DNA of 64,000 nt. Source: Eledone cirrhosa (taxonomy: Eukaryota). A model generated the notes under the pieces. The model made no database searches, was not told the origin of the DNA, and saw only the letters and a list, made by a program, of their open reading frames with translations. The DNA is taken from the NCBI GenBank assembly GCA_964016885.1, contig OZ024753.1, positions 17,980,001 to 18,044,000 of the forward strand, read 5' to 3'. Numbering within the stretch: position 1 is the stretch's first letter; each line of letters begins with the position of its first letter. Below, piece after piece: positions 1-48,971 of the stretch. A program made the position numbers and the translations under genes.

Positions 1-2320
1 CCATTTCTGAGTGAGACTGGCTACCCTTCCCGTTACCTCCTCCCAATTCTTAACCACCTGGAGGTCTGGCCCGAACCAAACCCCTAGCAACTTTACCGGT
101 CCATCTGTCCACCGCCTAACAACGCTGATGGACGGCATGGACTTGCCTTTCCAGGTGCCGAGTTGCAAGCCCACCGATTTTTCCGGGTTAGGTTTTACTC
201 CCGTCAAACTTTCATATTCCTCCAATAAGTTGCCGACCACCTCGATTTCTGAGGTGTCCGACACCATCACGGTGATGTCGTCAGCAGAAGCCGACACAGC
301 CTTTCCGTGTCCCGGTTTGAGCGGGATTCCCTGCAACAGCTCCAGCTTCCGCAGTAAAGGCTTGAGAGTCAATACGTACAGAAGGGAGGAGAGAGGGCAC
401 TTTGACGGACCGATCGGGAGACCTGAAACGGTTCCGAGAGGTGGCCATTAACTTTGACCACCGAGCAGATGCCGCTGAGCATTGCAGCGATCCAGCTTCT
501 GAAGACGGGGCCGAAGCCAGCCGCCTTGAGGACAGCCTCCAGATACCGATGGTCGACCCTATCGAATGCTTTCGATCGATCTAAATTGATCAGAGCCCCA
601 CCGGAGCCAGGTTTACACCCTACCCTCTCTATGATGTATCGCATTAGGTGGAGGTTGTCGTGTATGGACCTGGTTGGGATTGCGCAAGTTTGCACCTCCC
701 CAACCAAATCCCCGACGACAAGCGCCAACCTCTTCGCTAACACCCTGGCCAAAATCTTAAACTCTGTGTTGAGCAGAGTTATGGGCCTGAAATTGTCTAA
801 TGTGTCCCTCTTGTTCTCGTTTTTCCATATCAGCGTCACTACGCCCAGGCTCACAGAACTGGGAATACTCCCGTTTTGCTGTCAGTTGAAGTAGAGGCCT
901 TCGAGTAGATTGGAGAACAAGTCAGGCATATTTACGTAAAGTTCGTAGGGCAGACCATCCAGACTTGCGCCTCATGCAGCCGACAAGAGCATCCTGAATC
1001 TCGGCTGAAGTAATTGGCCTTTCGCAGCGCCCAGCGTCAGCCGTCGAGAGTTGCGGCAAGCCATCGAGGTAGGGACTGAAGTCCGCCACCATCTCTGACC
1101 CGCCACTTCCCCCGAACAACCGCGCAAAATGTTGGCGAAAGCCCTCACACATCCGCTTGGAATCGCTCAGCTCGTGTCCGTCTCGGTCCGTCAAAGACCG
1201 AATCATGGTTTTATTACCACGCTGCGCCTCTGCCACGCGGGCCCATCGAACAGCTTTGGTTCCCTCGTTTCTCAGAGCACGCGCCTTAACTCTGACAATG
1301 CAGCCTTCGTGTTCGCATTGAAGAAATGGTCTAATGCCATTCTCGCCGCTAGCACGTCAGTTGCAATGCCACTACCAATAGCCACGTCTAACTTATCTAC
1401 CAACTCCCCCTCCTTTCTATTTTTCTCTAACGCTACTTCTTTGATAAACTCTATCGACATTACTCTAATCTCTCTTTTGAGAGCCCCCACCATCTATTGT
1501 TGACGACTCCCCCTATCAACATTTTCTTAACTAAATTGTTGACCTGTAAGCCTTACGTGCCGGAAATGACATGTTTAGCTTCCAGTAACCAGGTCTTAAC
1601 CTACGCGTCTTATCTAGGTCGACCATACAGATCACAAGCTTGTGATCCGAATAGGCGACCGTTTCAAAACGTGGACAGCTTACACTATTTCTGTCTATTT
1701 TCCTCATGAATATCCTGTCTATATATGATCTAGATGACCCTATGCGGTTAGCCCAGGTCCACACTGGCGCATTAGGGAAATCTAGTCGGTACCTGTCAGA
1801 CAGTTGGAACTGGCTGATAAGTTCTTGAGGCTTTTGCACCCCCCGCTCCTATCGGATACTCTCACACAGTCCCAGCGTGCGTCTAAGATGCCGTTCCAGT
1901 CCCCTGCTAACAGTAAAGGGCGAGACGTACCTAGAAAGGCTTCCATGCGTCTAAAGAAGTCCGGCCGTCCTGCCCCAGTCGGAGCATAGACGGCCACCAG
2001 TTTAAATGCACCACTTTCGTTATTGTTCACGTCCAGGACCACCAACTTCCCGTCCGGGTACGGAAGATCGACCTTACCTCGAGATCCAGGCCTTTCCTAA
2101 ACAACACTGCCACCCCGCCTCCCATTCCCGGCCGGCTAACAGGTGCAAAGATCAGATAGTCGTCGAAAATGGGGGCTAGTGCGTGCGTGTCGGAAATCCT
2201 GGTCTCGCTGACGGCAATTACATCCATTTCTATAGACCTGAGGTCATTGAGCAGGTGGCCCTGGTTCCAGGACGATCCCAGGCCTCGAACATTTAAACAT
2301 CCTACTCGTAATACGGCCAT
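1..2320 (-). pseudogene. ORF2 remnant: APE endonuclease plus reverse transcriptase
   Basis: MAVLRVGCLNVRGL..VSET (2027-2320), VYAP..LAGDWN (1782-2045), SYIDRIF..SDH..PGYWKLN (1531-1839), NFRPITLLNTEFKILARVLA..KAFDRVDH (369-854), catalytic motif decayed to SADD near 280; several frameshifts. Confidence 0.93.
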
Positions 2321-2352
2321 GTTGGCAGGTTAAAAAGAGAGAGAGGAAAGGT

Positions 2353-4316
2353 TTACTTACCTTCCGGGCTCTTGTGAAGGTCGGGTTGTTCGACCTCCAT
2401 AGCGGGTGAGGTTTCTTTTGGGAACCCCTTTAAAAGTCTTGAAGTGGGTTTTACGTTCGGGGTTCCCACGTCCCGAGTAAAGCTGTCTCGTATTTCTTTG
2501 TATAAATCGAGCGACATTCGCACCAGAACCATATCTTCCGGCACGCGAAACGTGCTCGATTTAAAAATTTCCCCCTCTTTTTGTATATTTTCACTTCGTG
2601 CTACGAGGGCCATCAGTTCCTTGTTGGCCCTCCTGAGGAGCACGAAATTTTGTATGTTTTCTTGGTGTGATTTTATTTGTTTGCGTGGCTGTGGTGGTGA
2701 TCGTTTTGGTGGTGTTGTTTCGGTTGTGTCTGTATTTGTTGTGAGTGCGGTGTCTGTGGTTTCAGATGTTTGTGTGTATATTTGTTCTTGCGTCTGTTTA
2801 GGCTGTTTGCGTTTGGGGGATTCTGGTGATGGTCATGGTGGTGTTGATGTTGGTGTTATTGGAGAGATGTTTGCGTGGGTGGTGTCTGCGTTTTTTTGTG
2901 GGTGATTTTGTGCTTTGTTGAGTTTTTTTTTCTTTTTGTGTTTCCTTTTTTGTATTTTGGGGGATTTGGGTTTTCCCTCATCTTCACTACTGGTATATGA
3001 GGTGTCTGTGTCTTTAAGTGTGTCTGTATGCATGATTATGGTTGTATTGGTGTGTGTATTTTTTGGGGAAGGGGGAATTTGACAGCTTTCCTCGTTTCCC
3101 CCCTGGGTGGTCAATGTTGGTGGTGGTCTTTCTATTGGTGTTGTTGTTGGTGGTTTTGGCGGTGCTGGTGTTGGTTGTGGTCCTCGCCCCGGCGTCGGCA
3201 GCAGTGGAGTCTTTCGACCCCTTGCATCTTTAAGCAGTTGAGGGCAGAAGGCTCGCAAATGGGTTTTTTCCCCACAAACAAAACACTGCGGCCTTTTTCC
3301 TGCTGTCATAATGTGAATGACCGTCCCATTCTGAAGGCGGATGTAGTCCGGGATTGTCTTCACATTCTCGGGCCTGATCTGGAGAAGGTTCTCCAGGTCA
3401 ACCCGGACCAGTCCTCTCTGGACGTTCTGGTCACTTCTATAGGGACGGTGTCCGTCCCATCCACAATCACACATCCCAGAAGCCACCACATGTCAAGTCC
3501 TGGTGGGATTCTGTGAATACAGAGACGGGCCTTTCTTTTTGCCATGTGGGATGGTTACATTATGACCTTGCTTGTTTTGCAAGGAGTCATAGCGAGGACT
3601 TCTGACTTGAACATCACCGAAATGGTGCCGTACTATTGCCCCTCTCTATATATTCGGTGTCTTCTCTGATGCACCTCAGCCCGACTTCGACATCTGCTTG
3701 CGGGATTAAAGCTGCCCTTTTGGTATGTACTGAGATGCATCTATAATGCCCGTTCTGCGCTCCACTGCCTCAATAGCTTCTACCGACACAGTTAAGTTGG
3801 CCTAGGTTTGCTCTTGCTTGATGAGCTTCCATGCCTGGGCCAACATTTCATCTTTGTTTGAGAGGTCCATTTGAAGCATGGCCTCTTTTTTGCTGCTGCC
3901 GCAGCGAAAGTGTTCTTGTTTTCGTTGGGGGTGTTATTGTCGTTGTCGTTGTTCTTGTTGGTGTTGTTGTTATCACTGTCGCTGTTATCATTGTTGTCTT
4001 TGTTGCCACCGTTGTTCTCGGTGCAGTTTGTATTGTTGCTGTTGGTGTTGTCTCTATTTGTTTTCATGTTAGTGGTGTTGATATTGTTTTTGCATTTGTC
4101 ATTTTTTTTGTTGTTATCTGTATTTTCGTTGTCGCTGTTACTGTCATTTTTAAAAAAATTAGAGTTCTCATTGGTATCATTGGTGTCTTTGTTTACATTA
4201 TTTGTGGTGGTGTTTGTGTTATCAATTTGTGTTAATTTCGCTGTAGCGCTCCTCTCAACTTCTACGTTGTTGTGGAACGACAGCAGACATATCGCTGGAG
4301 GGCGTGGCTCAGCCAT
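2353..4316 (-). pseudogene. ORF1 remnant (gag-like nucleic-acid-binding protein)
   Basis: Zinc knuckle CFVCGEKTHLRAFC (ORF 2833-3489), Asn-rich N-terminal tract, Pro-rich and Lys-rich tail; ends ~30 nt before the ORF2 ATG. Confidence 0.85.
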
Positions 4317-4521
4317 GTCTTTTTTTCTCTGTAAATTTTTTAAAATGTGAAAAAAGTTCAAATATTTGGGCCAAAAGGCCCAAATATTATACTTTGCCCT
4401 TTACAGGGCAAAGTCTAATGGCTTATATCCCTTACAGAACAAGAAATATTTAACAACAAATAAGTTTAACATGCAAATAAAGCGACTTACTGGGAGCGAG
4501 CAAAATACGCCCGATTAGACC

Positions 4522-4565
<44 letters not shown>

Positions 4566-5444
4566 TAAAATACTAAAATCCAAAGAGAGCTCCATAAGGA
4601 AAAATATATATCAAATATATAAGAACCGCAGAGTAAATATATATATATATATATATATATTATATTATATTTTGAGAATAAACTCTCAGTGGTTTACAAT
4701 AATTAAGCTCCAGGAAGGGGCTCTTCCGAGCAGTTAATACATTTAAAGTATATGATAAACACGAAATGTGTTTACATTGCAACAGACAAAGTTAGCTATT
4801 AATGAAATAAACTAATAAAAGTGAATACAATTTGTCTGTCTCGATACAAGTCAATAAAGACTTGTATCGAGACAGACAAATTGTATTCACTTTTATTAGT
4901 TTATTTCATTAATAGCTAACTTTGTCTGTTGCAATGTAAACACATTTTCGATTCTCTTTATTTTTCAATTCACATTCCACCGTTGCGAAACTTATTTGAG
5001 TTTCGAGGTTCAAATTCGTCTACAGAACAGGTTTGAATTTTGAAATTTAAATATGTCCAGGAATCATGGCAGTTGCCAATATAAGCTTGTCTTTATTGAC
5101 TTGTATCGAGACAGACAAATTGTATTCACTTTTATTAGTTTATTTCATTAATAGCTAACTTTGTCTATTGCAATGTAAACACATTTCGTGTTTATCATAT
5201 ACTTTAAATGTATTAACTGCTCGGAAGAGCCCCTTCCTGGAGCTTAATTATTGTAAACGACTGAGAGTTTATTCTCAAAATATAATATAATGTATAGCTC
5301 CTTTATTGTAAGAGCTGATCCTTAATCCTGCATAAGCGGCTGTTATTTCTAGCACCGTGAATGTGGGATAGCTAGTTTTGGCCTGCCTACCCACGTGTAG
5401 TCAGACCTGCAAAATGTTTGATGTGAGATAGACTAATCTTACTG

Positions 5445-5621
5445 GATTCCTGTTGATAAGCACAGCAGATTTGGAAATTTCACTCTTTTATTTCTATTCC
5501 ATTTCGATTCTCTTTATTTTTCAATTCACATTCCACCGTTGCGAAACTTATTTGAGTTTCGAGGTTCAAATTCGTCTACAGAACAGGTTTGAATTTTGAA
5601 ATTTAAATATGTCCAGGAATC
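5445..5621 (+). ncRNA. Large type I hammerhead ribozyme (U3-A8 core)
   Basis: Stem I GAUUCCUG/CAGGAAUC; core UUGAUAA; stem II GCA/UGC with ~80-nt insert; GAAA; ~26-bp stem III rich in G-U pairs; GUC site ending 5613. Confidence 0.75.
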
Positions 5622-6000
5622 ATGGCAGTTGCCAATATAAGCTTGTCTTTATTGACTTGTATCGAGACAGACAAATTGTATTCACTTTTATTAGTTTATT
5701 TCATTAATAGCTAACTTTGTCTGTTGCAATGTAAACACATTTCGTGTTTATCATATACTTTAAATGTATTAACTGCTCGGAAGAGCCCCTTCCTGGAGCT
5801 TAATTATTGTAAACGACTGAGAGTTTATTCTCAAAATATAATATAATGTATAGCTCCTTTATTGTAAGAGCTGATCCTTAATCCTGCATAAGCGGCTGTT
5901 ATTTCTAGCACCGTGAATGTGGGATAGCTAGTTTTGGCCTGCCTACCCACGTGTAGTCAGACCTGCAAAATATTTGATGTGAGATAGATTAATCTTACTG

Positions 6001-6177
6001 GATTCCTGTTGATAAGCACAGCAGATTTGGACATTTCACTCTTTTATTTCTATTCCATTTCGATTCTCTTTATTTTTCAATTCACATTCCACCGTTGCGA
6101 TACTTATTTGAGTTTCGAGGTTCAAATTCGTCTACAGAACAGGTTTGAATTTTGAAATTTAAATATGTCCAGGAATC
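6001..6177 (+). ncRNA. Second copy of the large HHR, core mutated GAAA to GAUA
   Basis: Same fold 556 nt downstream; TGCGATAC instead of TGCGAAAC. Confidence 0.6.
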
Positions 6178-6647
6178 ATGGCAGTTGCCAATATAAGCTT
6201 GTCTTTATTGACTTGTATCGAGACAGACAAATTGTATTCACTTTTATTAGTTTATTTCATTAATAGCTAACTTTGTCTGTTGCAATGTAAACACATTTCG
6301 TGTTTATCATATACTTTAAATGTATATATATATATACATATATATAGTAATAATAATAAAATTGAAGACTAACATCCAAAATATATATATTTAATTGTTG
6401 TTCGAGTAGGCGCCTGTGTTGATATAACATTGATTTATGTATTCTGTTGTCACTAAAGGGAATCTCCTTAAACAGAGATATGTGTGAAATATTTGACTGT
6501 AACATTCGCTTCCTTTCTCTTAATCTTCAATGTTATGAAGGGTAATGTAGGGAATTATGAATATATAATTATACCAGAGATATATCTGTATTAATCCCAC
6601 AGTTGTCGCAAACAACCTGGATCCCAAAGAGAGAGAGAGAGGCTGGG

Positions 6648-6742
<95 letters not shown>

Positions 6743-6888
6743 CGGAGAGAGAGAGATGAGGCCGAGAGAGGCTGGGAGAGAGAGAGAGATAGATAGAGAG
6801 AGAGAGAGAAAGAGAGAAAGATATATGAGGGAGAGAGAGATTGTAAACTTGTATTCAGAATTTCATGAAATATAAATGATATTTAAAG

Positions 6889-7140
6889 GTGCCATACCGC
6901 CATAGGTAGCTGTTGTTCCCATTAATTATGGACAGCTTTTAGAAGCTCAGAAATCTCATAGCTTGAAATGTTACTGAAAATAGAGAAATAATATTTTAAT
7001 ATTTGATGAGATTTCATATGTCCACCTGGATTTGATATATGTAATGCATTCTTTGTGTAAATAATACTCATATACTTGGATAATACAAAATGTATTCACT
7101 TTGTTATATAACTTTGAAACAATGGAATACTCTCACTTTG
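6889..7140 (+). pseudogene. Decayed Ig-domain-like exon
   Basis: After AG acceptor reads AIPP*VAVVPINYGQLLEAQKSHSLKCY*, then YSYTW and NTLTL in nearby frames; resembles Ig A/B/C/E strands. Confidence 0.35.
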
Positions 7141-9006
7141 ATTCGCCGAAGTTAGATCCCAGATATATTTTAGGCTCTTAGTAAAGACAAATATTCTCTT
7201 TTCCGACGTAATACTAAAATACGTCTAAAACATAGCATCTCATAAGAAGCTTACCATTGCATTAAACTATATGAACTAGATACTAGAAATAAAATCCTGT
7301 TACACAGCTTTTCCATGGTAGTTGTTTTATTAACTTTCATTTAGATAATATCATATGAAACAATACATAGTTAGTAAAAACGTTAGATCCTTTTGTGTAT
7401 GTTTACGTTGTAAAATAGATTTGTTTGGTTAAAAATAACTGCTTCAAGGCCCAATAGTATTTTCTTACTTCATAACACTGTAAGGATCATGTAAATATAG
7501 TGCTATATATTATTTTTGGTGTCTCTCTGCTCCATTGCTCAGACCTCCAAATATGTTATCTAGTTAAATGCTTAAATTACAACAACAATAGACGTTCAGT
7601 CGTCTGCTTCCTCCATGTCCTTTGTAATGCTTCTTTACAACACTTTCATGTACTACTATGATTACATCCTTCCTTGTAATTGTTTTCCTCAGAATCATAT
7701 TCATATTAACCCATTAAAATCCGTATACTCTTGTGCGTAATTAAAGACGACCCGGAAACACAGCCCCTTATGATAATGGTTTGGACTTAACATTTAAAAG
7801 CTTTTGAAGATCACACAGCGTAGCACGTTATAGAGTTTGTTTCGTAGACAACAGTCACTTTATGCTTGCCTGTGGCAGTATTTAGTTTCTAAGTAAAATA
7901 TTATGTATTATATGAAGTTATGACAGGTTCTTTGTGAATAAAGAGAAAACGGACAAAAGGAAATCATTAAAAGTTTAGTCGAAAACGATTCTTGCATAAA
8001 TGATAAATTCTTAAAGTTCATAACAACGAATTAAATATATCTATAAATATTTAACACTTAGTTATATAATTGTCAACGTAAATGTAGTTCTATGCATAGC
8101 TTCGTCCGCAAGAAATAACGTACGAAGTAAATAAAAAAGAACACTATATGATACGAAAGAATATATCTTTGCAACAAGTTATTCAATTAACTATGCTATA
8201 GAAATCGTCAAATGTATGGCATTGAAGAAGCTTGCTTGCAGGTGAGATATATTGTACAAATTAGTGGCTAAAAAGAAAATAATTTCACTTCACAAGATAT
8301 CAATATTTACATCTGAACGTCATTAATATACTTAAAGAATATGTTTAATAACAGTTGCTAATTCATTCATTGGGCACTCTAATTAAATTCAGTTACTTTC
8401 TTACGTACATACAAAGTAGGAGAATACAAACACATAAACACACAATCATGATACATTTATTGTACAACGGCCATTTTGTCCAACGGCCATTCTGTCCAAC
8501 ACGAAAGTGCAATGAAATATTCTGATAATAGCTTCAACAATTCTATACATGAAAAATGCTAAACGTTGCTTTTCTTTATTAAGATGGCGAATTGTGCTAC
8601 GGCATTTTACATTGATAGATCACCAGAATTAAATGAGTGGATATTTAAAACGTGAAAAAGAATTAAGATATGGAAGTTTTATGATAGTCAGATTAGAAAA
8701 AGTAAAACAACTAAAAAATAACAGAAAAAAACAAGAAAACAAAAATAAAAGCGACACAATGCAGGTAATACTTTTATGTCAATGATGAAATATATAGGAA
8801 GAATATAGGACGGAATCTATTACATAACATCAGATGATCGATATCATGAACAATACTCAATCATTTTGGACTGGTATCATTTATGTTATATCAACTGGTA
8901 TTTCTATTATTCACATAGAACTGGCTCAAATAAATACATATTAACATTTTACTGATAACATAATAGGAACAAGACTAAGGATTAGAAATTTAGATTTAAG
9001 CATATA

Positions 9007-9037
<31 letters not shown>

Positions 9038-9171
9038 GAAAAAATATTGTTTCTTACTAAAACAATATATAAAACTAGGCGGAGAAGCAGCTCAAAATAC
9101 AGTAATTTATTAGAATAAATTATATATATATACATATATATATACCCCCCCCCCCACATATATATATATAT

Positions 9172-9412
9172 AGTAATAATAATAAATTTGAAGACTAAAA
9201 TCCAAAGAGGGCTCGATAAGGATAAATATATATCAAATATATAAGAACCGTAGAGCAAAGTATCGTCTTTCTGTCTTCTTCCGGTTGCAACGTTTTTTGA
9301 AATATCCACTTCTGCGTTTACAGATTGACTTTGTTAGTTTCAGAAGATCCCGTTAAGGGTGAAAGCAGCGATTCTTTGCTTAAACTTTAATCTGTTATTT
9401 TAATAAATATAT
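9172..9412. mobile_element. PLE pLTR-derived non-autonomous fragment (inverted terminus plus HHR)
   Basis: 9172-9260 is homologous to 4560-4637 and to the reverse complement of 39320-39410; 9341-9397 matches 39253-39308. Confidence 0.65.
9337..9385 (+). ncRNA. Variant HHR (CAGAAGA core)
   Basis: GUUU-CAGAAGA-U CCC GUUAA GGG U-GAAA-GCA..UGC-UU-AAAC. Confidence 0.55.
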
Positions 9413-10423
9413 ATATATATCTAAGGAGTTGACGGACCCACCATATTTATCAATGCCAGGACCAGTTGTATCTCAGCGTACTCAATAGGCAATGTAAGAT
9501 ACATTCCCAGAGTATACACATAGTTAATCGCTTCAACACAACACACGTGAAACGGGTGCCTATAATAGTTCCCGGACTCGAGTTTCGGCCACACTAATGC
9601 AGCAGTAAGGTGCACTGCACCATCCGTCTGCATATATTATGCAACAATGCACAACCAGCTTATGCGGCTTCATCAGCGGATATCGCCTAATCAATAACCA
9701 ATCGATCGACAGAATACAAACACCAGCCCATGCCGGTCATGACTGTTTGTGACGACTGACACGGTAAAGCCATTTGCAACTGGCCCCCGATACGATTCTA
9801 CCTCTCGACTAGCCACCGATTTACAAATTTTACGTGGCGGCGGTAGACTAAAAAATCAATCTTTTCGTTCCCGTAAAAAGCACTCAGCCAACGTGCCTCA
9901 CACACCACACACATTATTAAGAGGTGAAAAGATGGCTATTAGAAATATATATATATATATATATAAAATTACAAGAAACGAAGCAGGCTGTATGGTTACT
10001 GTAAAAAAAGTGTAAGATAGTGATATGGATGTCAACAAGAGAAAAAATTCTTCATCAGCTGTTAACTGCGGATCATAGATGTTTTGGCGCTGAAAACAGG
10101 ACATCGAAAACGACCAGCAGCGCGCCCAGGCTTTTTATCAATCAAAAGACCATGAGGGAAAGAAAAGAAAAGATAAGATAATGAAGAGACAGGAAGAAAG
10201 AGAAAAACGGAAAGAAGAAAAGACGAATATATATATATAGGAAAGGAGTCAGGCCCCGGCGGCTGAGCTCCGGCCGTTTCGAACAGTTAGGATCTAATCG
10301 TCGAAACGGCCGGATCTTAGCCGTCGTGGTCCTGACTATTTTCATATTACCCACTCTACTACCCTAAGTATTGAGTACTCTGGTGCGTTATGGTCCACGT
10401 GGTATCCTACCACACCCTCTCTG

Positions 10424-10842
10424 CTATATATATATATGTATATATATGTATATATATGTATGTATATATATGTATATATATATATGTATATATGTATATA
10501 TGTATATATATATGTATATATATATATGTATATATGTATATATGTATATATGTATGTATATATATATATATATGTATATATGTGTATATATATATGTATA
10601 TATGTGTATATATATATGTATATATGTATATAGATATATATGTGTATATATATATGTATATATGTGTATATATATATGTATATATGTATATAGATATATA
10701 TATGTATATATATATGTATATATGTATATAGATATATATATGTATGCATATATGTATATATGCATATATGTATATATATATGTATATATGTATATATGCA
10801 TATATACATATATGTATATATATATGTATATATGTATATATG
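10424..10842. repeat. Compound (TA)n/(TATG) microsatellite
   Basis: Direct inspection. Confidence 0.95.
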
Positions 10843-10977
10843 TAATATTAAGGATACTATTTATAGTTATGTATATTTTAAACTATAAACAGGGAAGGTC
10901 AGTAATTTATTACTACCTTATTACCAGTAAGAGAAATAGCTCAATGTAATAACATCAGTTGTTCTACAGAGCAGTTT

Positions 10978-13680
10978 TATAGAATTCACAAGAATCAAAG
11001 CTGTGTTCAAAGCATTTACTCACTTACAGGTGTTTCATCCAAAAAATATATACAACATACCATAAACCTAAAGAAAAACTAATTTACGTAGATACCAAGT
11101 CTAACCACCCTAGATCAATACTAAACTCTATCTCTAAAGGAATATCCAATAGTATCTCTAATCTATCTCATGCCGAAACCATATTTAGCAAAAACCCACA
11201 ATACTTAATCAGGCATTAGCTAGATCAGGCCATAATAATGAGATCGAATTCCTACCTATAAAAACACATAGTTGCAACATTATTTTTCACAATATGTCCA
11301 TGACGAAAAATAGTAATAAGAGTAATAACCACACATACACTAATACGAAGGGTAGCAACAAACGTAACCCACACCAGAGAAGACACCAAAATACCATAAA
11401 CGGAAACACCTCAACAGATATAAAAAACAAAAATAGAAGAACTAATACATTTTTCAACCCCCCTCTCAATCTAAACGTCTCTACCAACCTACCTAAGGCT
11501 TTCTTCTCACTCTTGGGTAAAAACTTCCACTCTGGCCACAAGTACCATAGTCTTATAAATAAAAGCACCATTAAAATCTCATACTCTACCACGCCTAACA
11601 TAACATACCACATAGCTAGTAGCAATAAAAGAAAGATTAATACTTACTTTCAACAAACTAAAACACAGCAGGGGGTAAACTTTCAAAACAACGTAATATC
11701 TGCAAACCCTGATATCAATAGTAATAATAGTAATAACACTAGTGAAAGCAATAACGCTAGGAGCGACTACCCCCCATAGCCATAATGCAATACCTAGCAA
11801 CCAGACTTCTACACAACATAATAACCGGCAGGTTAACATCCAAAATAATTGTAACTGTAGATCTAATAGAACCTGCCCTTTAGATAAAAATTGCTTAGTC
11901 AAGGACATCATCTACTCATGCACGGTCAGAACTAGCAACTCTTCTGAAACCTATATAGGGTTCTACTTCGAACTGCTTCAAAACCAGATACAATTCACAT
12001 CTCCATTCTTTCAAAAAACACAGTCTAGCCAACTCCACTTCACTATCTAGCTACATACACTATCTGAAAACTGAATGTTTGCGTCGTGCCAGCACCGCTT
12101 CCGGCACTCCTTCCAAAACTTTAAACCCAATATATAACAATGTCAGACTTGAACCCATCACCGCTTCTAACACCACACCTCAAGGGCATGCCTTACACCA
12201 CTGCACCACACTCTCTGATCCAACCTTCCCTCGACACAAATCATTCTATCTATCTATAAGTTTATACCCTAGAAATATCCTCATAAACACCAACTTTTAA
12301 TATAATTACTTTTAATTACTTATAATTATATAGTGATAGAAATATAATACAGTCTATATAAACTTTAAATACTAGATACGGCAGTGAATTATATATGTAT
12401 CTGTAATTAAATGTATGGAGTAATAACATTATATATATATAGGATTAATGTATTAACATAGGGATATGTCTAACTTATATGTAGGGTGGTGCAATGAATT
12501 ATGTATGAATTATATATGAATGTATAACTTGATGGATAGATTAATGACATTGTAAATGAGGGATCTATTTGTCTACCCAAGAGTTGTATTTGGTTTTGTC
12601 ATGCAAACAGCCATACGCTGCTCCATAACTTACCTGGGGTTATGTAGACAACATTCTAATAGGTCTTCTGATATGTTTCGAGAGTAGACTGTATTTACAG
12701 TGAACTTTGATATAAAGATATGGCACTTTGTATGGAAATTTCAATTATAGCACTATATAATAAAGAGTAATCAACTTCCTATAGATACCTTTAATACATC
12801 TATCGAGTGGACTGTATTCAAAATTGAAAATTAGATATAAATATATAACCTTTTATATAAGGGATTCAATTGAGGCACCATATAATGTATGTTAGAACAA
12901 TGAATTTAGTTTTGAGAATCAGCAAGTTATCTCCCCTTACGCATTAACTCCCCTTACCTACACACCTACTTCTGGGTAATAAACCACTGTAAATTATCGC
13001 AGCAGAAAGAAACTATTCTATAAATATGGATTAAATAACACTGAGCCTCAATACGCTACAATAATTTAATGCATCAAACATTCAATACGGAACATCGTAA
13101 CTTATGTGATGGATGTAAAAACGATAATTCCTTTTTCTGAATGTGAAAATGGTGGTGGATTCGAAAACTATAACTTTCTTTTTCTTTTTCTTTCTCTTTT
13201 TCTGCACACATACTTTTTTGATCTATACAAAAAATACCCTACCACTACAACCACCATAATACTCTTGCTTGCCCGCTTAAAATGCTTGCATTACATGTAA
13301 CACCTTGCCACACAATAATCGTATATAAATGAGACACACTTGCATGCTCCATGTGTAACTAATGCATACACTACCCACAAGATCTGACTATCAAACTATC
13401 CTCTTGCATTATCTGTGTTATCTGCCGAATGTATTTTAATTTTAATTTTGATTTTGATTTTGAATTTGAATTGCTGTACAAATATAGTATAGTATAATAT
13501 TGGTCACTCCACTGTACATCAATATATATATGTATCTGTATGTCTCTTGCGTTGGATAGGAGGTCAATTATATGTACAAGCATTGAAAAAAGCTCCGGAG
13601 ACACCAAGCCTAGGTTTGGATGAAACAATTGTAAGTGAATAAATGATTTGAACACAGCTTTGATTCTTGTGAATTCTATA
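10978..13680 (+). mobile_element. 5'-truncated PLE (Naiad-like) with short inverted termini
   Basis: RT thumb YHKP..IYVDTKSNHPRSIL near 11060-11130, FFNPPLNLNVSTN, GIY-YIG CNCRSNRTCPLDKNCLVKDIIYSC..TYIG; 10978-11011 is the reverse complement of 13647-13680. Confidence 0.85.
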
Positions 13681-14057
13681 TGTATATATATATGTATATA
13701 TATATATATATATATTTAGTTAGAGAAGCAAAAAATTGCTTATTGTGATCCAGTTCTTGGTTAAGAAAGCCAGTTCCATCGATGGTTTCAACGTACGGCT
13801 AGGGGTAACTCCACAAGTTTGTAAGAATTCCGTTCAATCTTGGAGTATAAAGTATAATTGAGAGGCTGCTATTTGCATTATAGCAATATAAGGTTGCACT
13901 TACCAATGAAACGGTCGTAAATACCTGGATAAAATCCTTCTCTTAATGCTTACCTGTGTTTTCTCTTTTATACTATATATATATGTATATATATATGTGT
14001 ATAACGGCGATGAATTAGTTTTGCGAGGTTTTTTATATGAAATCGTGTGTCGAAACA

Positions 14058-16355
14058 AATATTGTTATACTTGGGGAGTGTAATATTTGGGTAACATTGC
14101 CACAATTAATAACAGAACACACTCACTGTTTGGTTGGTTTTCGCTTCTGTGTCTTTTATATCGGTTAATTTAATTTATTCGGTCCTCAATGTTGCCATTG
14201 ATTGACCAACGGTCAAAAATACAGATACAATATAGACACAAACATATAGAAAAATGTGTCGAGATGATCATTGAGAGTGAAGTGGAGTTCTGCGACGTCG
14301 ACATAGACGAACTGGGCCTCCTACTTAGACTTACCTACGACACTGACTACCTAGACAGCCATGACCTTAGACGTTTCTGTCCCAGTAGACCCATAAGGGT
14401 TAGACCCCCACCATAACCTCAATGGCTAAAACGACTCCCATGGGAAGGTGGATTCGGTGGACCAAAGCTATACGGACACCCCAAAACAATGATCATGTAA
14501 GAAAAATGGTTGCACATGCAATAGGGGCTAGTATCAAAACTACCCTAAAGAGCCACATATTCAAGTTTAACGAGAAGATCTACACCCAAAATGAGGGAGC
14601 AGCGATTGGCGTAAGCATAGCTGGTGACGTTGCCAAACTTTTTATGGTATGGTGGGAAAGGAGACTTAAAGATCTCCTTAATGAGAGCTCCATAGACCTC
14701 ATCATGTACTCTCGTTACGTAGACGATATCAATATGGTTATAAGAACATCCCCACAAGAGAGCACTAACAAGTTTGATTTAGAACGTAGCACAATAGAAA
14801 GCATCCAGCAGATAGCTAATTCCATACACCAGAGTATAACTGTAACTATCGACTACCCTTCCAAACACCCTAACAATAGACTACCTGTATTAAACGCGGA
14901 ACTCTGGATTAACACTATAAACGAGAGAGCCCAAATTCTCCACTCATACTATGCTAAACCCATGGCCTCCAAATACCTGATACTCAAAAACTCAGCAATG
15001 TCCAGTAGTGCTAAGTTTATTATTCTGATCGCAGACTTGGTACGAGTGATGAAGAACGTGTTCCGCATGTGAGACCCAACAGAAATGGAAAGACACATCC
15101 AACACTTCATCAACCGCATGCAGTTCTCTGGCCACAACCAAAGGGACATAATCAGAGTATACGAAGGAGCCACGCAGAAGTATAAGACCCTCATAGAACT
15201 GGACATGAAAGGAATTTGCCCATTATACAGGAGCAAATCATGGAATAGCTTAGATAGGGCTAGACATGAGATAGGGAAAGCCACCTCATGGAACGACAAC
15301 CAGAGATACCAGAGTGTCATGTTTGTGGACGCTACCCCTGGAGGGAAATTAGCTAACCAGTGTAGACAGGCCCTGAGAAAGACCCACTTAAAGATTAAGG
15401 TGGTATAAAAGCCAGGAACCACCATAAAATCCCTGATCAGCAAAACCTACCTTTTTTTAAGAAAACCCACTGTACTAATAGGAAATGTATCATATGTAAG
15501 GTAAACCCATGGGTAAACTGTAAAACTAGAAACGTAGTCTATAGCATAAGATGTACAGAGGGTACTTGCAGAAACATGACAACAACATACATAGCGAGAC
15601 AGCGCGTAGCATAGGTGAAAGGATAGACCAACACTGGGGGAAGCTAAAAGGACGAAAAAACGGTTCAGTACTATACGAACATGCCAGACAACAACACGAG
15701 GGTAACATAGACATCATAGAAATTAGAATAATATCTAAACATAGAAATGACCCAGCAGATAGGCAAATCAGAGAGGCCAATGAAATAGAAAAAATGAATG
15801 GAATATCAACAACACCCAAAAAAATAACACTGACCTAAGAGAAGTATAAATAAATAAATAAATATATAAATAAATAAATAAATACATACACAATAACAAC
15901 AAACACATCTAAACACATACTAGTAAAGATAGAATACATTAACCAATACACAGTCACCCAATCACGACACACATCAAACAAAACACTATACACACACGCA
16001 AACGCATGCGCAAAGAAGACAAAATAAAATAAACAAATAAATAAATATATAAACAGACTAAATAAAGATGGCGTAGAAAATACAATAGGGAGGAAAAAGA
16101 TAGCACCACTCACGATGTTGCAGATGTGCAACGAAAGAACTTTGATAAACTATATATATATATGTGTTTGTGTCTATATTGTATCTATATTTTTGACCGT
16201 TGGTCAGTCAGTGGCAACATTGAAGACCGAATAAATTAAATTACCGATATAAAAGACACAGAAGCGAAAGCGAAAACCAACCAAACAGTGAGTGTGTTCT
16301 GTTATTAATTCTGGCAATATTACACAAATATGACCCTCCCCAAGTATAACAATAT
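14058..16355 (+). mobile_element. PLE with ~190-bp inverted pLTRs
   Basis: 14058-14248 vs 16163-16355 inverted; RT QNEGAAIGVSIAG..YSRYVDDI (14422-15072); GIY-YIG remnant RNVVYSIRC..ETARSIGERIDQH (15530-15838). Confidence 0.9.
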
Positions 16356-27617: not shown

Positions 27618-27710
27618 TAGAAGGGGTATTTAATTTGCTGGAAATACAACAAGTATAATTGTTTATAATTGTTCCAGATCACTCGACAGTTTCTGGAGTA
27701 AATATTCAAT

Positions 27711-28020
27711 AATAAATGGAAACTATATTTATAAAACCATATTTATTCTATTATATATATTTCAAGGGTACCAAAAAACTTTGGTACGCTTTCATCAGAT
27801 AAAATATAAAGAGTGTTTTATAAATGTTGACATAACCAAGGAAATCATACCTTATCAGTTGAAACATTCAACTGATAAAGTATGATTTCCTTGGCTATGT
27901 CAACATTTATTAAAACACTCTTTATACTTTATCTGATGAAAGCGTACCAAAGTTCTTTGGTATCCTTGAAATATATATAATAGAATAAATATGGTTTTAT
28001 ACATATAGTTTCCATTTATT
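27711..28020. repeat. Fold-back palindrome of an HHR-bearing pLTR
   Basis: Arms 27711-27863 and 27868-28020; HHR on each strand (27746-27804 -, 27928-27984 +). Confidence 0.9.
27928..27984 (+). ncRNA. Minimal HHR with palindromic stem III
   Basis: UUUAU-CUGAUGA-AAG..UACCAAAG UU CUUUGGUA..CUU-GAAA-UAUAUA-UA-AUAGA. Confidence 0.75.
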
Positions 28021-28473
28021 TAATATCATTGATTATATATATATATATATACATATATATACATAAATACATATAGTAAATGAGTGAAGAATAACATGGA
28101 GGGCGGTACAGTAGGGTTTATTTAAAGTATTAACAAATGTTTCATTAGTCAGGTGTGTCTAAAAGTCGCTGATTATAAAATGCTACATCACTCAATTTCA
28201 ATTGCAGAATAATGATTTGTGAACATGATACAGTGCTCTAGTATTTATAGATACATGAAAAATAACAAGAATAGAAGCAACAATAATAATAATAACATGA
28301 AAAAAGTGGTATGAAAAGATTATACGATATATATATAATGATTTCTCCCGAATGAAACAGTTCTAGTTCTGTAGAAGACATTTCTATATTAAATATTTAT
28401 ACTCTGGTATGTATTGAGTACCTTACTTACTGTGGTTACCCCTTATTGAACCCAGGACAAAAATACACACACA

Positions 28474-29092: not shown

Positions 29093-29139
<47 letters not shown>

Positions 29140-29184
29140 ATAATAATAAAATTGAAGACTAAAATCCATATATATTTATATATA

Positions 29185-30390: not shown

Positions 30391-32647
30391 TTAGGGAGAA
30401 GTGTTTAGACGGGGTCCGTATTTGTTAATGAAGTAAGATTCCTTGCTGATGCGCTGGGTGTGGGTGGCATTATCTTTAAATTTGTAGAGGGGAAAGGTTC
30501 TGAAGTTGGGATGATTTTGGGCGGCACAGGTATCAATGTGTTCACTCAGTGGTATTTTCCTGTATTCCCGTATTTTAATTTGGGATCTATGGACAGTCAT
30601 GCGTTGGCGGAGGCTGTCTTTGGTCGGGCCTATGTATTGTTCTCGACAACCTGAACAAGTTAATACATATATTAGATTTTCCGATGCACATGTGAAATTG
30701 TGTTTTACTATAAAACGTTGTCCATCTTTGAAATAGAATTCCGAACCCTCTATTAGGTTGATGCAAATGCCACAGTTGGGTCTATCGCATTTTTTTTACT
30801 GTGGGTTTCGTTGTTGTGGTTGGCAGTACTTTGGCATGTGTTAAGATGTTTTTCAATGACTTGGATTGTCTTTTGCTCTTTATGATATCGTGTGTTCGTA
30901 GAATTTGGTTCATTCTATGGTCCTTTTTCAATACAGGGATGTTCTGGAGGATGGTGTCAAAGGCCTCATTGTTGAGGGGGTTGTGTGTGGAGATGTATGG
31001 AAGAGCTTTTAGTTTTGGTTGATTTACTTTATGGTGTCTAAGGTCCTGGGTACTGAGTTTTAGGGCACGTTGGATTCCATTGTCAATTAGTGATGCAGGG
31101 TAGTCCCTGCCTATGAGTGTGTCCTTTAGTTCTTGTAGCCGTAAGTAGCAGATGTTTTTATTGGAGACTATAGTACAGATTCTCTTGGCTAAGTTGTAGG
31201 GAATATTATTTTTAACGTGTCTAGGGTGGCAAGAGTTGAAGGGGAGGTATTGCTTGGAGTCTGTGGGCTTGTAGTATATGTCTGTTTCTACTTTTTTGTT
31301 ATGGATCTTAATGAGGATGTCGAGGAAGGGGAGTTGTTGATGGCTGTATTCCATCGTGAAGTTAATATTTGTGTTGAGCCCATTTATAAGGGTGTGAAAT
31401 TCTTTAAGTTTTTCGATGTTTTCGTGCCAAAGGATGAAGCAGTCATCTAGATATCGCTTCCAGTTCCTTTCAATGTGTAAGTGGAGGGTGTTTCCAAATT
31501 TGTTTAGGACTTTAGTGTAGAGGGTGATTTCCAGGTATCCCATGACTAGGTTGGCATAAGTAGGGGCTGTTTTCGTTCCCATAGCGGTCCCAGATTTCTG
31601 CCTGTAGGGTTTGTTATTGAAAACGAAGTAATTGTTCTCCAAGATAAATTTGAGTCCCTCTATCACGAATTCTTTTTTGATGCGTTGTGGGAGTTCATTG
31701 TGGAAATTATCCAGCCAGAATTGGATAGCTTCTATTCCTAGATTGTGGGGGATGTTGGAGTATAGGTTGACTACATCAAACGTCACTAGTAGGGTTTGTT
31801 CAGAAAGTGGCATATTAGGGAGGTGATTGAGCATATCTAGGTCGTCTCTTATATAGCTTTTGATGTGCTTGAGGAAGGGTTTGAGAAGGGTATCAATGAA
31901 GTTGCTAAGACGGTGCGTTTCGCAAGCGGGGCCTGCTATTATAGGTCTTAATTTGAGATCATTGGGTGAGGGGACATTGATGACTATGTCTGTGGCTTCC
32001 TTGCATGCCTTACTGATTGATTCGCTTTTATGTACTTTAGGGATACCGTAGAAAAGGCTGGATTTACTTGTGAAGTCTGTGATGAAGCTGAATTCCTTGT
32101 TAGTGAGTCCTTCTTTGTATTGGTTGATTAGAGTTTTTAGGTTTCTCATAATTTTCTGTTGATTTTAGTGTTCAGCCTTTTCGTAGTATGTTTCGTTTTC
32201 CAAAGTGGAGAGCGCTAAGTTGATATCGAATTCTGTCTCCATTAGGACTACTGTACTCCCTTTATCAGCCTCTTTAATTGTAATGGTTCTGTCGGTTTTT
32301 AATCTATTTAATTCTTCCCATTCTTTCTTGTTGAGGTTTGGCTTGTGTTTTTGTCTGTGCAAGTGTTGGTAAGGGAAGTTTGTGATGTGTTCACAGAATT
32401 CGTCCAGGATTTTATTTTTACCTTTTGAAGGGGTGTAATTGCTTCTATTTCTGGCTAATGATTCATCCTCATTGTACTGGTCGAATAGTTGTTCACTAAG
32501 TCGTAACTTTCTACAGAAGTCTGTGATGTCTTCCTTCATTTCATAGTAGTTAGGACGTAGTGGGGTCGGTGTGAATTTAAGACCTTTGGAGAGTAAGTTG
32601 ATAAGGTTGGGTGTTGGTTCTGCACTAGTAAGACCTCTACCGACCAA
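30391..32647 (-). pseudogene. PLE RT-GIY-YIG polyprotein, frameshifted
   Basis: LSKGLKFTPTP, IKEADKG, FYGIPKVHK, RPII, TFDVVNLYSNIP, GTAMGT, RYLDDCF, Cys-rich linker, LIYVLTCSGCREQYIGPT..RMTVH, ESYFI..LN. Confidence 0.95.
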
Positions 32648-37634: not shown

Positions 37635-38237
37635 ATATTTAGCTTCGTCTGTTCAACTGATATTTAGCTTGATCTGTTCAACTGATATTTAGCTTGATCT
37701 GTTCAACTGATATTTAGCTTGATCTGTTCAACTGGATATTTAACTTGATCTGTTCAACTGGATATTTAACCTGATCTGTACATCTGGATATTTAACCTGA
37801 TCTGTACATCTGGATATTTAACTTGATCTGTACAACGTGATATTTAGCTTGATCTATACAACTGGATATTTAGCTTGATCTGTTCAACTGGATATTTAAC
37901 TTGATCTGTACAACGTGATATTTAGCTTGATCTATACAACTGGATATTTAGCTTGATCTGTTCAACTGGATATTTAACTTGATCTGTTCAACTGGATATT
38001 TAACCTGATCTGTACATCTGGATATTTAACTTGATCTGTTCAACTGGATATTTAACTTGATCTGTACAACGTGATATTTAGCTTGATCTATACAACTGGA
38101 TATTTAGCTTGATCTGTTCAACTGGATATTTAGCTTGATCTGTTCAACTGGATATTTAACTTGATCTGTTCAACTGGATATTTAGGTTGATCTGTTCATC
38201 TAGATTGTTAGCTTGATTCCTTCAACTGAATATTTAA
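37635..38237 (+). repeat. 23-24 bp minisatellite (GATATTTAGCTTGATCTGTTCAACTG-like), ~25 units
   Basis: Direct inspection; variant units recur in blocks. Confidence 0.95.
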
Positions 38238-44295: not shown

Positions 44296-44519
44296 TATAT
44301 TAGTGTGTGTGTGTGTATATATAAATATATTGAAATAGAAATAGAAGCTTCATCGTAATGCATATTTGTCTATAATGCAGTATAATAATGGGGCGTAAAA
44401 GATGGATACAGTCTCGAAATATTACGGTGAAATATCTATTTCTATTTCAAATTTCAATTTCAATTGTTGCGTTTTAAACTCCCTGTACATGTATACATAC
44501 ACACACACTCACATATATA

Positions 44520-45268
44520 TGAGCTCTAGGTACCCCTCTAAACATATCACTGCCCTTGACTTTGCGGATGACATTGCACTTCATGCAGATTGCCTAGAAA
44601 ATGCGCAACAAATTTTGACAACTCAAGGAAGCAGCCGACTTGATTGGCCTTCATCCCATGAGGGTAAAACAGGGTGTATATCAAACAGTACGGGCAACAG
44701 TATCAAAGTAATCAACAGCAGTGATATCAAGCAAGTCGAGGATTTCAAGTATCTTGAGTCCTGGATCATGGACTCTGAAAAGGATTTCACCAACAGAAAG
44801 GCGCAAGCGTGGTCAGCTTGCAACAAGATGGATAGAGTTGGGCGCTCAAATCTTTCCAAACACACCAGGATCAGACTCTTCCAAGTAACAATTCAACCAA
44901 TCCTTCTATATGGAGGTAAAACATGGACGCTTTCATCCAAACAACAGAAGCACCCTGATGTCACCTACACTCACCTGCTTCAAAGCATTCAGAACATAAG
45001 CTGGCGACATCTATCTTTGAGGGATATATATGCCGGCCTCCCACGCATATCTGTCCTTAAACGTAAAAGGAGAGTAAGATTTGCTGTGTCCCCATTAGTT
45101 CTTTTGAAACCACAATCAGTCACTAATAACAGGGGAGCAAGCTTTCCTATCTCGATGTCATCTCCAGAGATTCTGAATCGAAATCCAGGATTTGGAACGG
45201 AAACGAACGACAGACCCACGTGGAGATCAATTGTTGAGTCCATTTCGGCTGAAGCCACCGGATGATGA
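44520..45268 (+). mobile_element. RTE LINE 3' fragment (RT catalytic region to tail)
   Basis: LDFADDIAL, QVEDFKYL, IRLFQVTIQPILLYGGKTWTL, DRPTWR; GATGATGA tail. Confidence 0.9.
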
Positions 45269-45916: not shown

Positions 45917-45964
<48 letters not shown>

Positions 45965-45967
<3 letters not shown>

Positions 45968-46310
45968 TACGATATTAACAAATGGAAACTATATTTATAA
46001 AACCATATCTATTTTATTATACATATTTCAAGGATACCATGTTAAATTATGGTATGCTTTCATCAGACAAAATACAATATATACCAGTTTTATAGATAAA
46101 TATTGACATACCCTTTCAAAATGCAACCATTACTTTTGGAAGAAACGGTCGCATTTTGAAAGGGTATGTCAATATTTATTTATAAAACTGGTATATATTG
46201 TATTTTGTCTGATGAAAGCATACCATAATTTAACATGGTATCCTTGAAATATGTATAATAAAATAGATATGGTTTTATAAATATAGTTTCCATTTGTTAA
46301 TATCGTATAT
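45965..46310. repeat. Fold-back palindrome of an HHR-bearing pLTR (same family as 27711-28020)
   Basis: Near-perfect arms about centre ~46137; HHR 46010-46074 (-) and 46201-46265 (+). Confidence 0.92.
46201..46265 (+). ncRNA. Minimal HHR
   Basis: UAUUUUGU-CUGAUGA-AAG C AUACCAU..AUGGUAU C CUU-GAAA-UAUGUA-UA-AUAAAAUA. Confidence 0.8.
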
Positions 46311-46410
46311 TTACTCCAAATACTTGTCGAGTGCTTTATATCAGTTATAAAAATATTTGCTTGTTGTATCCCAACAATTTAAATAGAACTTTTGCATATA
46401 TATATATATG

Positions 46411-46446
<36 letters not shown>

Positions 46447-46486
46447 CATAAATATTAATAATATAGATGTCCATTTGATCAATTAC

Positions 46487-46540
46487 ATTTCATTATACAT
46501 ATTTCGGATGTACAACAGTACGTCCTCATCAGACAAAATA
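46487..46540 (-). ncRNA. Minimal HHR with canonical core
   Basis: UAUUUUGU-CUGAUGA-GGA C GUAC UGUU GUAC A UCC-GAAA-UAUGUA-UA-AUGAAAU. Confidence 0.82.
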
Positions 46541-46836
46541 TAATGATACATGACATACCCTGGGATGTTAAATGGTTAAGATCAAATGGAAAATTATTTC
46601 CTCGTAGAGTGCTTCCAATCTACTGTAAAACTCATTCTTTGACATAATCATTGAATATCGTTTAACACTTTAATATATATATATATATAGTTTTTCTTCT
46701 TGACTTGTTTTGAATTAAGAATGTATTACTTATCCCATATCTTTCGTTAAACATTTTTCGTATTCATCTTATAGTCACTTATATGTCTGAATTATTGTTG
46801 GCTACTTGCTGACATTAATTTCTCTATTTTCATATA

Positions 46837-48271: not shown

Positions 48272-48394
48272 TAATGTGTGGTGACAGTCAAGTTTGCAAT
48301 TTTCAACTATATATATATACACATATATTCTCTACCAGATATTTTGTTTTAGTTTCATTCATTCTCAAAATATCTAGTAGAGAATCTTGAGAAG

Positions 48395-48971
48395 CCAGAG
48401 GGGATCACTAATGTAGGTGGGAAGACGCTAGAATTGGTTGAGGATTTCCTGTATTTGGGAGTAGAGATTGGGAATACGGAAGATGATGTGGTTGAGAGTA
48501 AGAACAAAGCCTGGGCGGCGTGCCACAGCTTGAGATCGGTGTGGAAGTCAGACCTTCGTAAAGAACTGAAAATCCGCCTCTTCATTGCTGTAGTGGTGTC
48601 TGTGCTGCTGTACGGGTCTGAGACTTGGACACTGACCAATAAACACTCAGATGGTGGATGGGTGCTACACGAGAATGCTGAGGATGTCTTTGAAATCTAA
48701 TCAGTATGCACTGAGGATGAACAACTCAGAGCTGTATGGGAGCCTCCGAAAATCAGCTCAAAAGTGACACAGAGGAGACTGAGGTTAGCTGGACATGCTC
48801 ACCGACATCCAGAGTTGACATTGCAGTCAGTGCTCCTGTGGGAGCCCCTGCATGGACACACTGGAAGAGGAAGACCAAAGTTAATATGTTGATGCCCTAA
48901 GGACAGACACTGGTCTGTTGGAGACGCAGGACATGGCAGCGATAATAAGAGACAGAGACCGCTGGAGAGAA

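Follow-up and report, generated by a model that had tools for sequence, protein, structure and literature searches.

Several described systems come close to the element reported here. Penelope-like elements (PLEs) are characterised by partial tandems, an inverted 5'-truncated copy, a tail and a bias towards (TA)n (Craig et al. 2021, PMC8557442). As to hammerhead ribozymes, Perreault et al. (2011, PMC3088659) report the U3-A8 pair as a natural, active variant, describe the A6C exchange as slow and U4C as sufficient for viroid infectivity, and suggest that a weak core can be made up for by contacts outside it; in addition, a mammalian hammerhead is known whose parts lie several hundred nucleotides apart (PMC6765202). 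Animal retrozymes lacking long terminal repeats (non-LTR retrozymes) are the subject of Cervera and de la Pena (2020, PMC7229834) and of Li et al. (2026, 10.64898/2026.07.22.740005). Here, we analyse an insertion at positions 4654-6325 of a 64,000-nucleotide stretch of the Eledone cirrhosa genome (assembly GCA_964016885.1, contig OZ024753.1, positions 17,980,001 to 18,044,000, forward strand), the whole of which is referred to as the window. It appears to represent one insertion of a dispersed non-coding family whose off-consensus hammerhead likely cuts itself and which the reverse transcriptase (RT) of a PLE likely copies into (TA)n, an account that we consider, taken as a whole, to be distinctly the more probable one.

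The tandem part of the insertion harbours three GUC sites, one of which, ending at 5613, belongs to a complete hammerhead on the + strand with a predicted cut after this position. In the customary hammerhead residue numbering, its first core strand (5453-5459) reads U3 U4 G5 A6 U7 A8 A9, a U3-A8 pair replacing C3-G8. It is preceded by the 5' strand of stem I (5445-5452), which forms 8 bp with 5614-5621, and followed by the 5' strand of stem II (5460-5462), which forms 3 bp with 5540-5542. The second core strand (5543-5546) provides G12 A13 A14 A15.1, stem-loop III (5547-5611) is 65 nt long and contains 26 pairs, seven of them G·U, and U16.1 and C17 occupy 5612-5613. Behind the 3' strand of stem I (5614-5621) lies a small conserved hairpin (5623-5634) with a variable loop on a stem that is kept. 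Positions within the monomer are counted from 5058, the first base 3' of a GUC cut, as position 1.

An earlier note on the window, made from the letters alone, had assigned these parts to 5445-5621, and refolding returned all of them: the 8-bp stem I, UUGAUAA with U3-A8 in place of C3-G8, the 3-bp stem II, GAAA and the 26-pair stem III. Its expectation that the G-U-rich stem III folds well on the + strand only is borne out by z-scores of -2.85 on the + and -0.27 on the - strand for 5440-5625; folding of the circular monomer gives -5.7 versus -1.7 (40 shuffles each). The motif is also, as had been foreseen, missed by default searches: Rfam yields no hammerhead match at E up to 5 in window 1-15000 and none at gathering score in six family loci, and a standard hammerhead descriptor misses it as well. 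What the note gives as about 80 nt between the strands of stem II (the apparent loop II at 5445-5621 measures 77 nt) proved to consist mostly of a strand of a conserved helix, designated helix X, and an expandable linker. The first 21 nt of this loop (5463-5483) form the 3' strand of helix X and pair with a 22-nt 5' strand (5423-5444) abutting stem I upstream. The remainder is a U-rich linker (5484-5539) of 56 nt, which ranges from 7 to 65 nt across the family and grows by slippage. The ribozyme construct that had been suggested, 5445-5621, thus leaves out helix X and with it part of the motif.

The hammerhead is by no means confined to the window. Exact core-flanking patterns, which leave seven core-1 bases unconstrained, gave 722 matches versus 0 in the control for subfamilies A-C and 811 versus 1 for subfamilies D-H in the searched assembly of 3.0 Gb (the labels of the eight subfamilies A-H were coined in this analysis). 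Since the two patterns do not overlap, their sum sets the minimum number of motif copies, not of loci, at 1,533. The loci were collected by similarity and from pattern lists on the contig designated C1, and the sample is not random. A strict consensus core (CUGAnGA) occurs in 0 of 100 plus 0 of 100 among the matches listed of both patterns. A search for a canonical-core version with the stem I of the window copy was abandoned, 214 matches against 213 in the control being chance level. Four sequencing runs, which are contigs of unknown kind, show the presence of the family only. Outside the genome, there are 0 viral matches, and three metagenome matches were rejected as GC-rich chance matches. 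Where two junctions are seen, units measure 473-567 nt, apart from a few rearranged ones; with gaps excluded, the units of subfamilies G and H share 72-78% identity with that of the window. With a longest ATG-started frame of 32 aa and a regional GC content of about 33%, the unit is a tandem monomer several hundred bases long, non-coding, low in GC and without features of LTR elements, as is typical of retrozymes (primer-binding site and polypurine tract were not searched for separately). The 556 nt of the window unit, considered unusually long in the earlier note, lie well within the retrozyme range of 51-972 bp given by Li et al. (2026).

Comparison of the copies bears out that the stems covary across the genome, stems I and II and pair 3:8 in particular. 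The covariation set comprises 317 complete hammerheads at 219 sites, four truncated candidates having been left out. Pair 3:8 is U-A in 274 copies, C-G in 32, U·G in seven and otherwise composed in four, C·A being absent; an unselected list of 100, counted by hand, contains U-A 51, C-G 40, U·G 6 and other 3. Pair 10.1:11.1 of stem II is found as G-C (277), A-U (18), A·C (12), G·U (8) or other (2), the change from G10.1-C11.1 to A-U taking place in subfamily H. Within stem I, pair 1 occurs as G-C (282) or A-U (29), pair 5 as U-A (219) or A-U (93) and pair 7 as A-U (228), G-C (60) or G·U (21). Altogether, three compensatory pairs are located in stem I, one in stem II and one near the base of stem III. 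An alignment of 51 copies, cleared of four rows with faulty alignment at the 3' end, has 95.0% of its cells paired; both sides have changed in 73 cells, compared to 26.3 +/- 4.3 in shuffled and at most 20 in slid controls; for subfamilies A-F alone the figures are 65 versus 27. Stem I is always 8 bp and stem II always 3 bp long, loop II spanning 25-86 nt and stem-loop III 15-66 nt. G5 is retained in 314, U16.1 in 311 and H17 in 313 of the 317 copies, and N7 varies freely. C17, with eight private changes, ranks among the highest positions together with others, and was not used as an indication of cleavage.

On the evidence of these comparisons, stems I, II and III, pair 3:8 and helix X are selected on the + strand, and we regard it as highly likely that the fold is under selection as RNA and represents a type I hammerhead. 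Because U3-A8 is documented as active, we file the family as a variant rather than as a canonical type I hammerhead. That the hammerhead is a mere chance pattern of an AT-rich repeat containing inverted duplications could be argued from the off-consensus core and from the fact that duplications alone could yield stem III and part of helix X. Yet, the five compensatory pairs fall exactly at the hammerhead stems and at pair 3:8, and folding is restricted to the + strand, so this explanation is largely refuted already and exceedingly improbable. Several observations nevertheless tell against a selected and catalytically competent fold. The number of double-change pairs does not exceed the shuffled mean (7 versus 7.0 for the hammerhead, 3 versus 3.1 for helix X), each compensatory pair traces back to one or two lineage events, RNAalifold by itself recovers stems I and III and not stem II, and the invariance of G12 to A15.1 is partly built in by the extraction anchors. 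Moreover, without its upstream sequence the window copy attains the active fold with a probability of only 7e-4. Finally, core variants have spread despite the catalytic harm to be expected of them: A9U (33 copies at 18 sites), U4A (29 copies at 21 sites), U4C (14 copies at nine sites), A10.1·C11.1 (12 copies at 11 sites) and A6C (three copies at two sites). That lineages with A9U, U4A and U4C were amplified points to a catalysis that is slow or relaxed. On balance, we regard measurable cleavage at 5613, provided that the flanks are included, as rather likely.

Helix X joins the strand preceding stem I to that following stem II and thereby surrounds the 5' strand of stem I, core 1 and the 5' strand of stem II, the core being left unpaired. 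Its strands abut stems I and II, and these zero-length junctions are invariant. This is the topology of the pseudoknot which Perreault et al. (2011) describe as linking loop I with the tail behind stem II. All 239 copies of subfamilies A-F with intact upstream sequence form a duplex of -8 kcal/mol or lower. Within helix X, 92.1% are paired, 19 double-change cells contrast with 7.9 +/- 2.0 in shuffled controls and with up to 17 in a slid control, and the innermost three pairs are paired in 51 of 51 copies. Covariation involves U·G, U-A and C-G at one pair and U-A and A-U at another, with more changes in subfamilies G and H. A further, short pseudoknot between the 3' end of the loop and the 3' flank was dropped, since its changes are consistent with CpG decay and it is disrupted in one variant.

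How helix X acts can be read in two ways. We slightly favour a clamp that holds stems I and II together in a pseudoknot. Alternatively, with element and ribozyme unchanged, helix X may be an off-lock which forms first during transcription, so that monomers and circles stay uncut until it opens. This second possibility, to which we assign a clear minority of our confidence, derives from several findings which at the same time count against the clamp. Nested folding lets helix X, the more stable of the two, exclude stem I in five of seven copies, and in subfamily G the linker following it has only 7-8 nt, which by estimated geometry is barely enough to span about 17 bp; both together make the lock a serious rival. 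In addition, a rival local hairpin of its 5' strand fits the data too, 89% being paired. This hairpin, possible in the window copy and there preferred over helix X in nested folding, competes in subfamilies A, B and H; the 5' strand can pair elsewhere too. Opening of such a lock via the local hairpin, a protein or a helicase is conceivable with the same limited confidence as the lock itself, and plant and viroid circles do block their own hammerheads by self-pairing (Cervera and de la Pena 2020). Against a lock, helix X pairs with no core base and its zero-length junctions to stems I and II never change. Furthermore, subfamilies C-G, devoid of a good alternative hairpin, would be switched off permanently, yet their stem I and pair 3:8 covary.

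Besides helix X, other peripheral parts of the hammerhead have grown. The length of loop II changes partly in steps of about 15 nt. Stem-loop III comprises 65 nt in most copies and 28-29 nt in many copies of subfamily G; the long form goes back to a 37-nt segment with core 2, hairpin and GUC that was duplicated in tandem, and the two repeats are still identical at 35 of 37 positions in locus L341 and at 24 of 37 in the window copy. The duplicated stem III has refolded as a single hairpin, and its lineage changes are mostly A/G opposite U. Lineage changes from A to G (67) outnumber those from U to C (41), at the level of sites 17 versus 12, and 24 of 34 changes in stem III are A/G. Selection for G·U pairs would explain this excess as well as ADAR editing would, and the counts by site are weak. 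If helix X is indeed a clamp, a helix of 17-21 bp stapling stem I to stem II might keep a whole class of animal hammerheads active, with the core free to drift and the periphery growing to 200 nt; we put this generalisation forward tentatively, the odds being somewhat against it.

The insertion in the window is itself composite. A direct repeat with a lag of 556 spans 4946-6325, that is 2.48 units, with five mismatches in 824 bp, and its GUC|CAGGAAUC junctions have GUC ending at 5057, 5613 and 6169, as recognised in the earlier note. The tandem part of the extent given there, 4948 to 6325, stands, but an inverted arm and a fold-back piece at 4654-4947 belong to the element, too. The entire two-armed insertion, 4654-6325, sits inside (TA)n, with 4637-4653 as left target and the right (TA)n beginning at 6326; no target duplication is readable within this flanking microsatellite. 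The short inverted arm (4654-4861, - strand) runs from monomer position 239 to 32, its outer end being the fixed "239" end of the family, adjoined by (TA)n. The fold-back piece (4859-4947, + strand; monomer 41-129) renders 4764-4947 palindromic around a hairpin at monomer 32-43 and meets the long arm via overlaps of 2-3 nt; it may have arisen from self-primed second-strand synthesis. The long arm (4946-6325, + strand) is the 556-bp tandem and consists of monomer 445-556, two full 556-nt units and monomer 1-156, terminating at the fixed "156" end next to (TA)n. Another short repeat starting at (TA)n adjoins the insertion on both sides (4560-4640 and 6345-6400) and recurs in the window at 9170-9260 and 29135-29170; it may represent the end of yet another PLE-type element.

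A ribozyme in every unit, as had been claimed, is not present: the hammerhead is complete at one of the three sites. The one at 4946-5065 (+) begins within loop II, lacks the 5' strand of stem I and core 1 and retains core 2, stem III, the GUC at 5057 and the 3' strand of stem I only, which precludes folding in cis. In the third hammerhead (5979-6177, +), A14 is replaced by U at 6101, the GAUA which the note had already pointed out, an exchange found in one of the 180 sites that cover this column. A14U, like G12A, is expected to inactivate hammerheads, and this copy is predicted to be inactive. With a single intact ribozyme, the locus cannot release a 556-nt monomer by two cuts in cis. Two consecutive units with complete hammerheads, by which Li et al. 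define an active locus, are lacking here and are found, e.g., at locus L006.

The ends of the insertions link the family to PLEs. Among the 148 scored insertions, 58 consist of one arm and 90 of two arms in opposite orientation; in 77 of these 90, one end falls at monomer 140-162 and the other at 228-240. The fixed outer ends lie about 156 and 239 nt past the GUC cut site, subfamilies G and H sharing them with the others. (TA)n abuts 206 of 281 arm 3' ends, and 5' ends are scattered, the arm length reaching a median of 544 nt and a maximum of 1,940 nt. Partial tandems, an inverted 5'-truncated copy, fixed 3' ends with a tail and a (TA)n target, the marks of a non-autonomous PLE, are hence all present. 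An open reading frame (ORF) body with RT and GIY-YIG, as an autonomous PLE would carry, was not found 5' of the arms at any of 190 sites examined, in agreement with the earlier view that the unit is a non-coding tandem monomer and not merely the pseudo-LTR (pLTR) of a coding PLE. The 5' neighbour of 282 arms is family sequence in 190 cases, (TA)n in 28 and other DNA in 64; among the latter 92, 28 proved to be family sequence, and what the remainder share are other repeats. Arms continue through the junction into a further monomer. That we deal with a dispersed non-coding family with Penelope-type ends can be stated with high confidence.

The genome contains two very young coding PLE families with frames of 821 aa and 784 aa and copies 98-100% identical, which we take to be Hydra-like and Neptune-like, respectively. 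At variance with a PLE as the driver, the unit shows no detectable homology to the untranslated regions (UTRs) or the sequence of these two families (30 loci each). Hydra-like protein fragments are found near 18 of 190 family sites versus one of 25 controls, which is uninformative because both elements target (TA)n. The units could in principle be orphan pLTRs of an unseen coding PLE that spread together with it or multiplied on the spot as satellite DNA. Li et al. (2026) trace retrozymes back to pLTRs, and tens of thousands of PLE candidates reside in the genome, two families of which were compared. However, with no shared ORF body 5' of the arms at the 190 sites, with junctions read through into the monomer and with insertions that are dispersed, short and two-armed, this origin is quite improbable. 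Locus L146, bearing two motifs 2,483 bp apart, was considered as an autonomous copy and rejected, being a duplicated segment without ORF. At L146, L207-L208 and L183-L184, identical or nearly identical insertions are repeated including their flanks, in two cases with a spacing of 2.5 kb, reflecting either segmental or assembly duplication.

Both coding families merit a brief description. The 821-aa family (L266-L295, e.g. L270:625-3090) has at least 96 copies at 98-100% identity and a pyrimidine-rich 3' UTR of 1.2 kb. This UTR ends in a canonical hammerhead of its own, which has a stem-loop II of 36 nt and a palindromic minimal stem III and is separated from (TA)n by about 55 nt. The Hydra-like ORF of the family has no relative among viral contigs, and a diverged relative is located at window 11189-12297. 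A frameshifted RT plus GIY-YIG copy of the 784-aa family lies at window 30394-32647 (-); at least 92 copies are 98-99% identical, the frame is open in many of them, and no canonical hammerhead was seen in about 1.1 kb of 3' sequence. The window further contains a palindromic element, embedded in (TA)n at 45950-46560, which resembles two-armed PLE ends. Three canonical hammerheads (CUGAUGA) lie in it, at 46066 (-), 46209 (+) and 46532 (-), their stem-loops II measuring 20-30 nt and their minimal stem-loops III 6 nt. A related palindromic element bounded by (TA)n occupies 27640-28030 and has a canonical hammerhead at 27798 (-). Elsewhere in the window are a decayed LINE at 1-3500 (-) with a zinc-knuckle ORF1 and RT fragments, presumably Tx1/L1-like, more RT fragments at 14404-15405, 44399-45262 and 48353-48697, and a 26-bp satellite with 23 copies at 37635-38236.

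The propagation of the family may be pictured as follows. Tandem loci would be transcribed and the ribozyme would cut after C17, at 5613 in the window copy, helix X most likely serving as a pseudoknot clamp, of the kind known from hammerheads of bacteria and phages, that buffers the weak cores (U3-A8, A4, C4, U9) and the 3-bp stem II. Cleavage being probably slow, multimers and monomers should coexist, and monomers may be ligated to circles, possibly by an RtcB-type activity, in analogy to the retrozymes of coral, mussel and axolotl. A PLE endonuclease would then nick (TA)n, and two RTs, primed at 156 and 239, would pass the cut site and meet head to head. Whether the template is such a circle we judge to be evenly balanced. 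There are 24 private alleles common to all copies at 20 of 127 sites. Copies within a site differ by 1.4-1.7% and by 1.2-1.5% from the nearest other sites, and 27 of 127 sites look mosaic; owing to this within-site divergence and the mosaic sites, a single circular template is no more than a candidate. A further caution is that only one of nine predicted retrozyme dimers showed cleavage in the work of Li et al. (2026). At loci L123, L131, L140, L142 and L029, several common alleles are not the same in all arms or units, so that a single insertion may have drawn on more than one template. Two hairpins, at monomer 271-309 (5328-5366) and 25-65 (5082-5122), display compensatory or wobble changes across 65 full monomers and are candidate RT or promoter signals.

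The same data bear on a role of the fold without efficient cutting. It could be kept as a structural signal, for RT binding or RNA stability, or as a relic, cleavage being weak or lost and uncut multimers being the templates. The amplification of lineages with A9U, U4A, U4C, A6C and A10.1·C11.1, the low predicted active fold and the mosaic arrays would suit this view, and neither 5' ends nor template switches are in excess at the cut site: nine of 238 arm 5' ends fall at monomer 1-3, some of them alignment breaks, and six of 83 tight intervals contain a switch there compared to 3.5 expected. Yet the compensation at 3:8 and 10.1:11.1, the retention of G5, U16.1 and H17 and the free variation of N7 are the pattern which catalysis predicts. 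We regard a purely structural fold as unlikely and favour the self-cleaving hammerhead.

The accessible literature contains, as far as we found, no description of the family or of a retrozyme hammerhead with such a helix, nor natural U4A or A9U hammerhead cores, subscription journals being thinly covered; the passages of PMC13282606 that were consulted do not mention ribozymes. The family is a previously unreported Penelope-type retrozyme whose hammerhead deviates from the consensus, is enlarged at its periphery and carries an additional conserved helix. The surprise is limited inasmuch as the element class itself is already known. Since retrozymes are searched for by their canonical hammerhead and no canonical core occurs among the 200 copies listed, current counts can miss whole families. 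Should the clamp reading be true, retrozyme families of thousands of copies would be invisible to consensus searches, and the present one would amount to a mutational scan of the hammerhead core performed by nature and read out by transposition. It offers natural pairs for testing peripheral rescue (C3-G8/U3-A8, U4/A4/C4, A9/U9, short/duplicated stem III, 7-/56-nt linker) and lets one ask whether Penelope-driven spread needs cleavage. Helix X, be it clamp or lock, bears on the question raised by Cervera and de la Pena of how animal retrozyme circles avoid being cut again.

With the metazoan non-LTR retrozymes (PMC7229834; 10.64898/2026.07.22.740005) the family shares non-coding AT-rich tandems with one type I hammerhead per unit and no ORF, the co-occurrence with PLEs and a monomer of matching size. 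In contrast to them, its cores are off-consensus in 200 of 200 copies listed, its hammerhead measures 90-200 nt and has the long helix X in place of loop-bulge contacts, its arrays are short and two-armed, and its units, known from DNA alone, exceed the RNAs of 170-400 nt shown experimentally. The hammerheads of Perreault et al. (PMC3088659) resemble it in U3-A8, U4C, A6C, a short stem II and pairing between the strands before stem I and after stem II. Their pseudoknots, however, comprise about 4-6 bp and are mostly bacterial or from phages, as opposed to about 17-21 bp in an animal retroelement; these authors set aside repetitive type I copies, and unlike their set, one single family here samples U3-A8, C3-G8, U3·G8, A4, C4, U9 and A10.1-U11.1. 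Partial tandems, an inverted 5'-truncated partner, a tail at one end, (TA)n and a type I hammerhead are common to the family and to endonuclease-bearing (EN+) PLEs (PMC8557442). It differs from the latter by having neither RT nor GIY-YIG ORF, by a tail of about 83 nt instead of 30-40 and by a long stem III where that of PLEs is minimal and palindromic.

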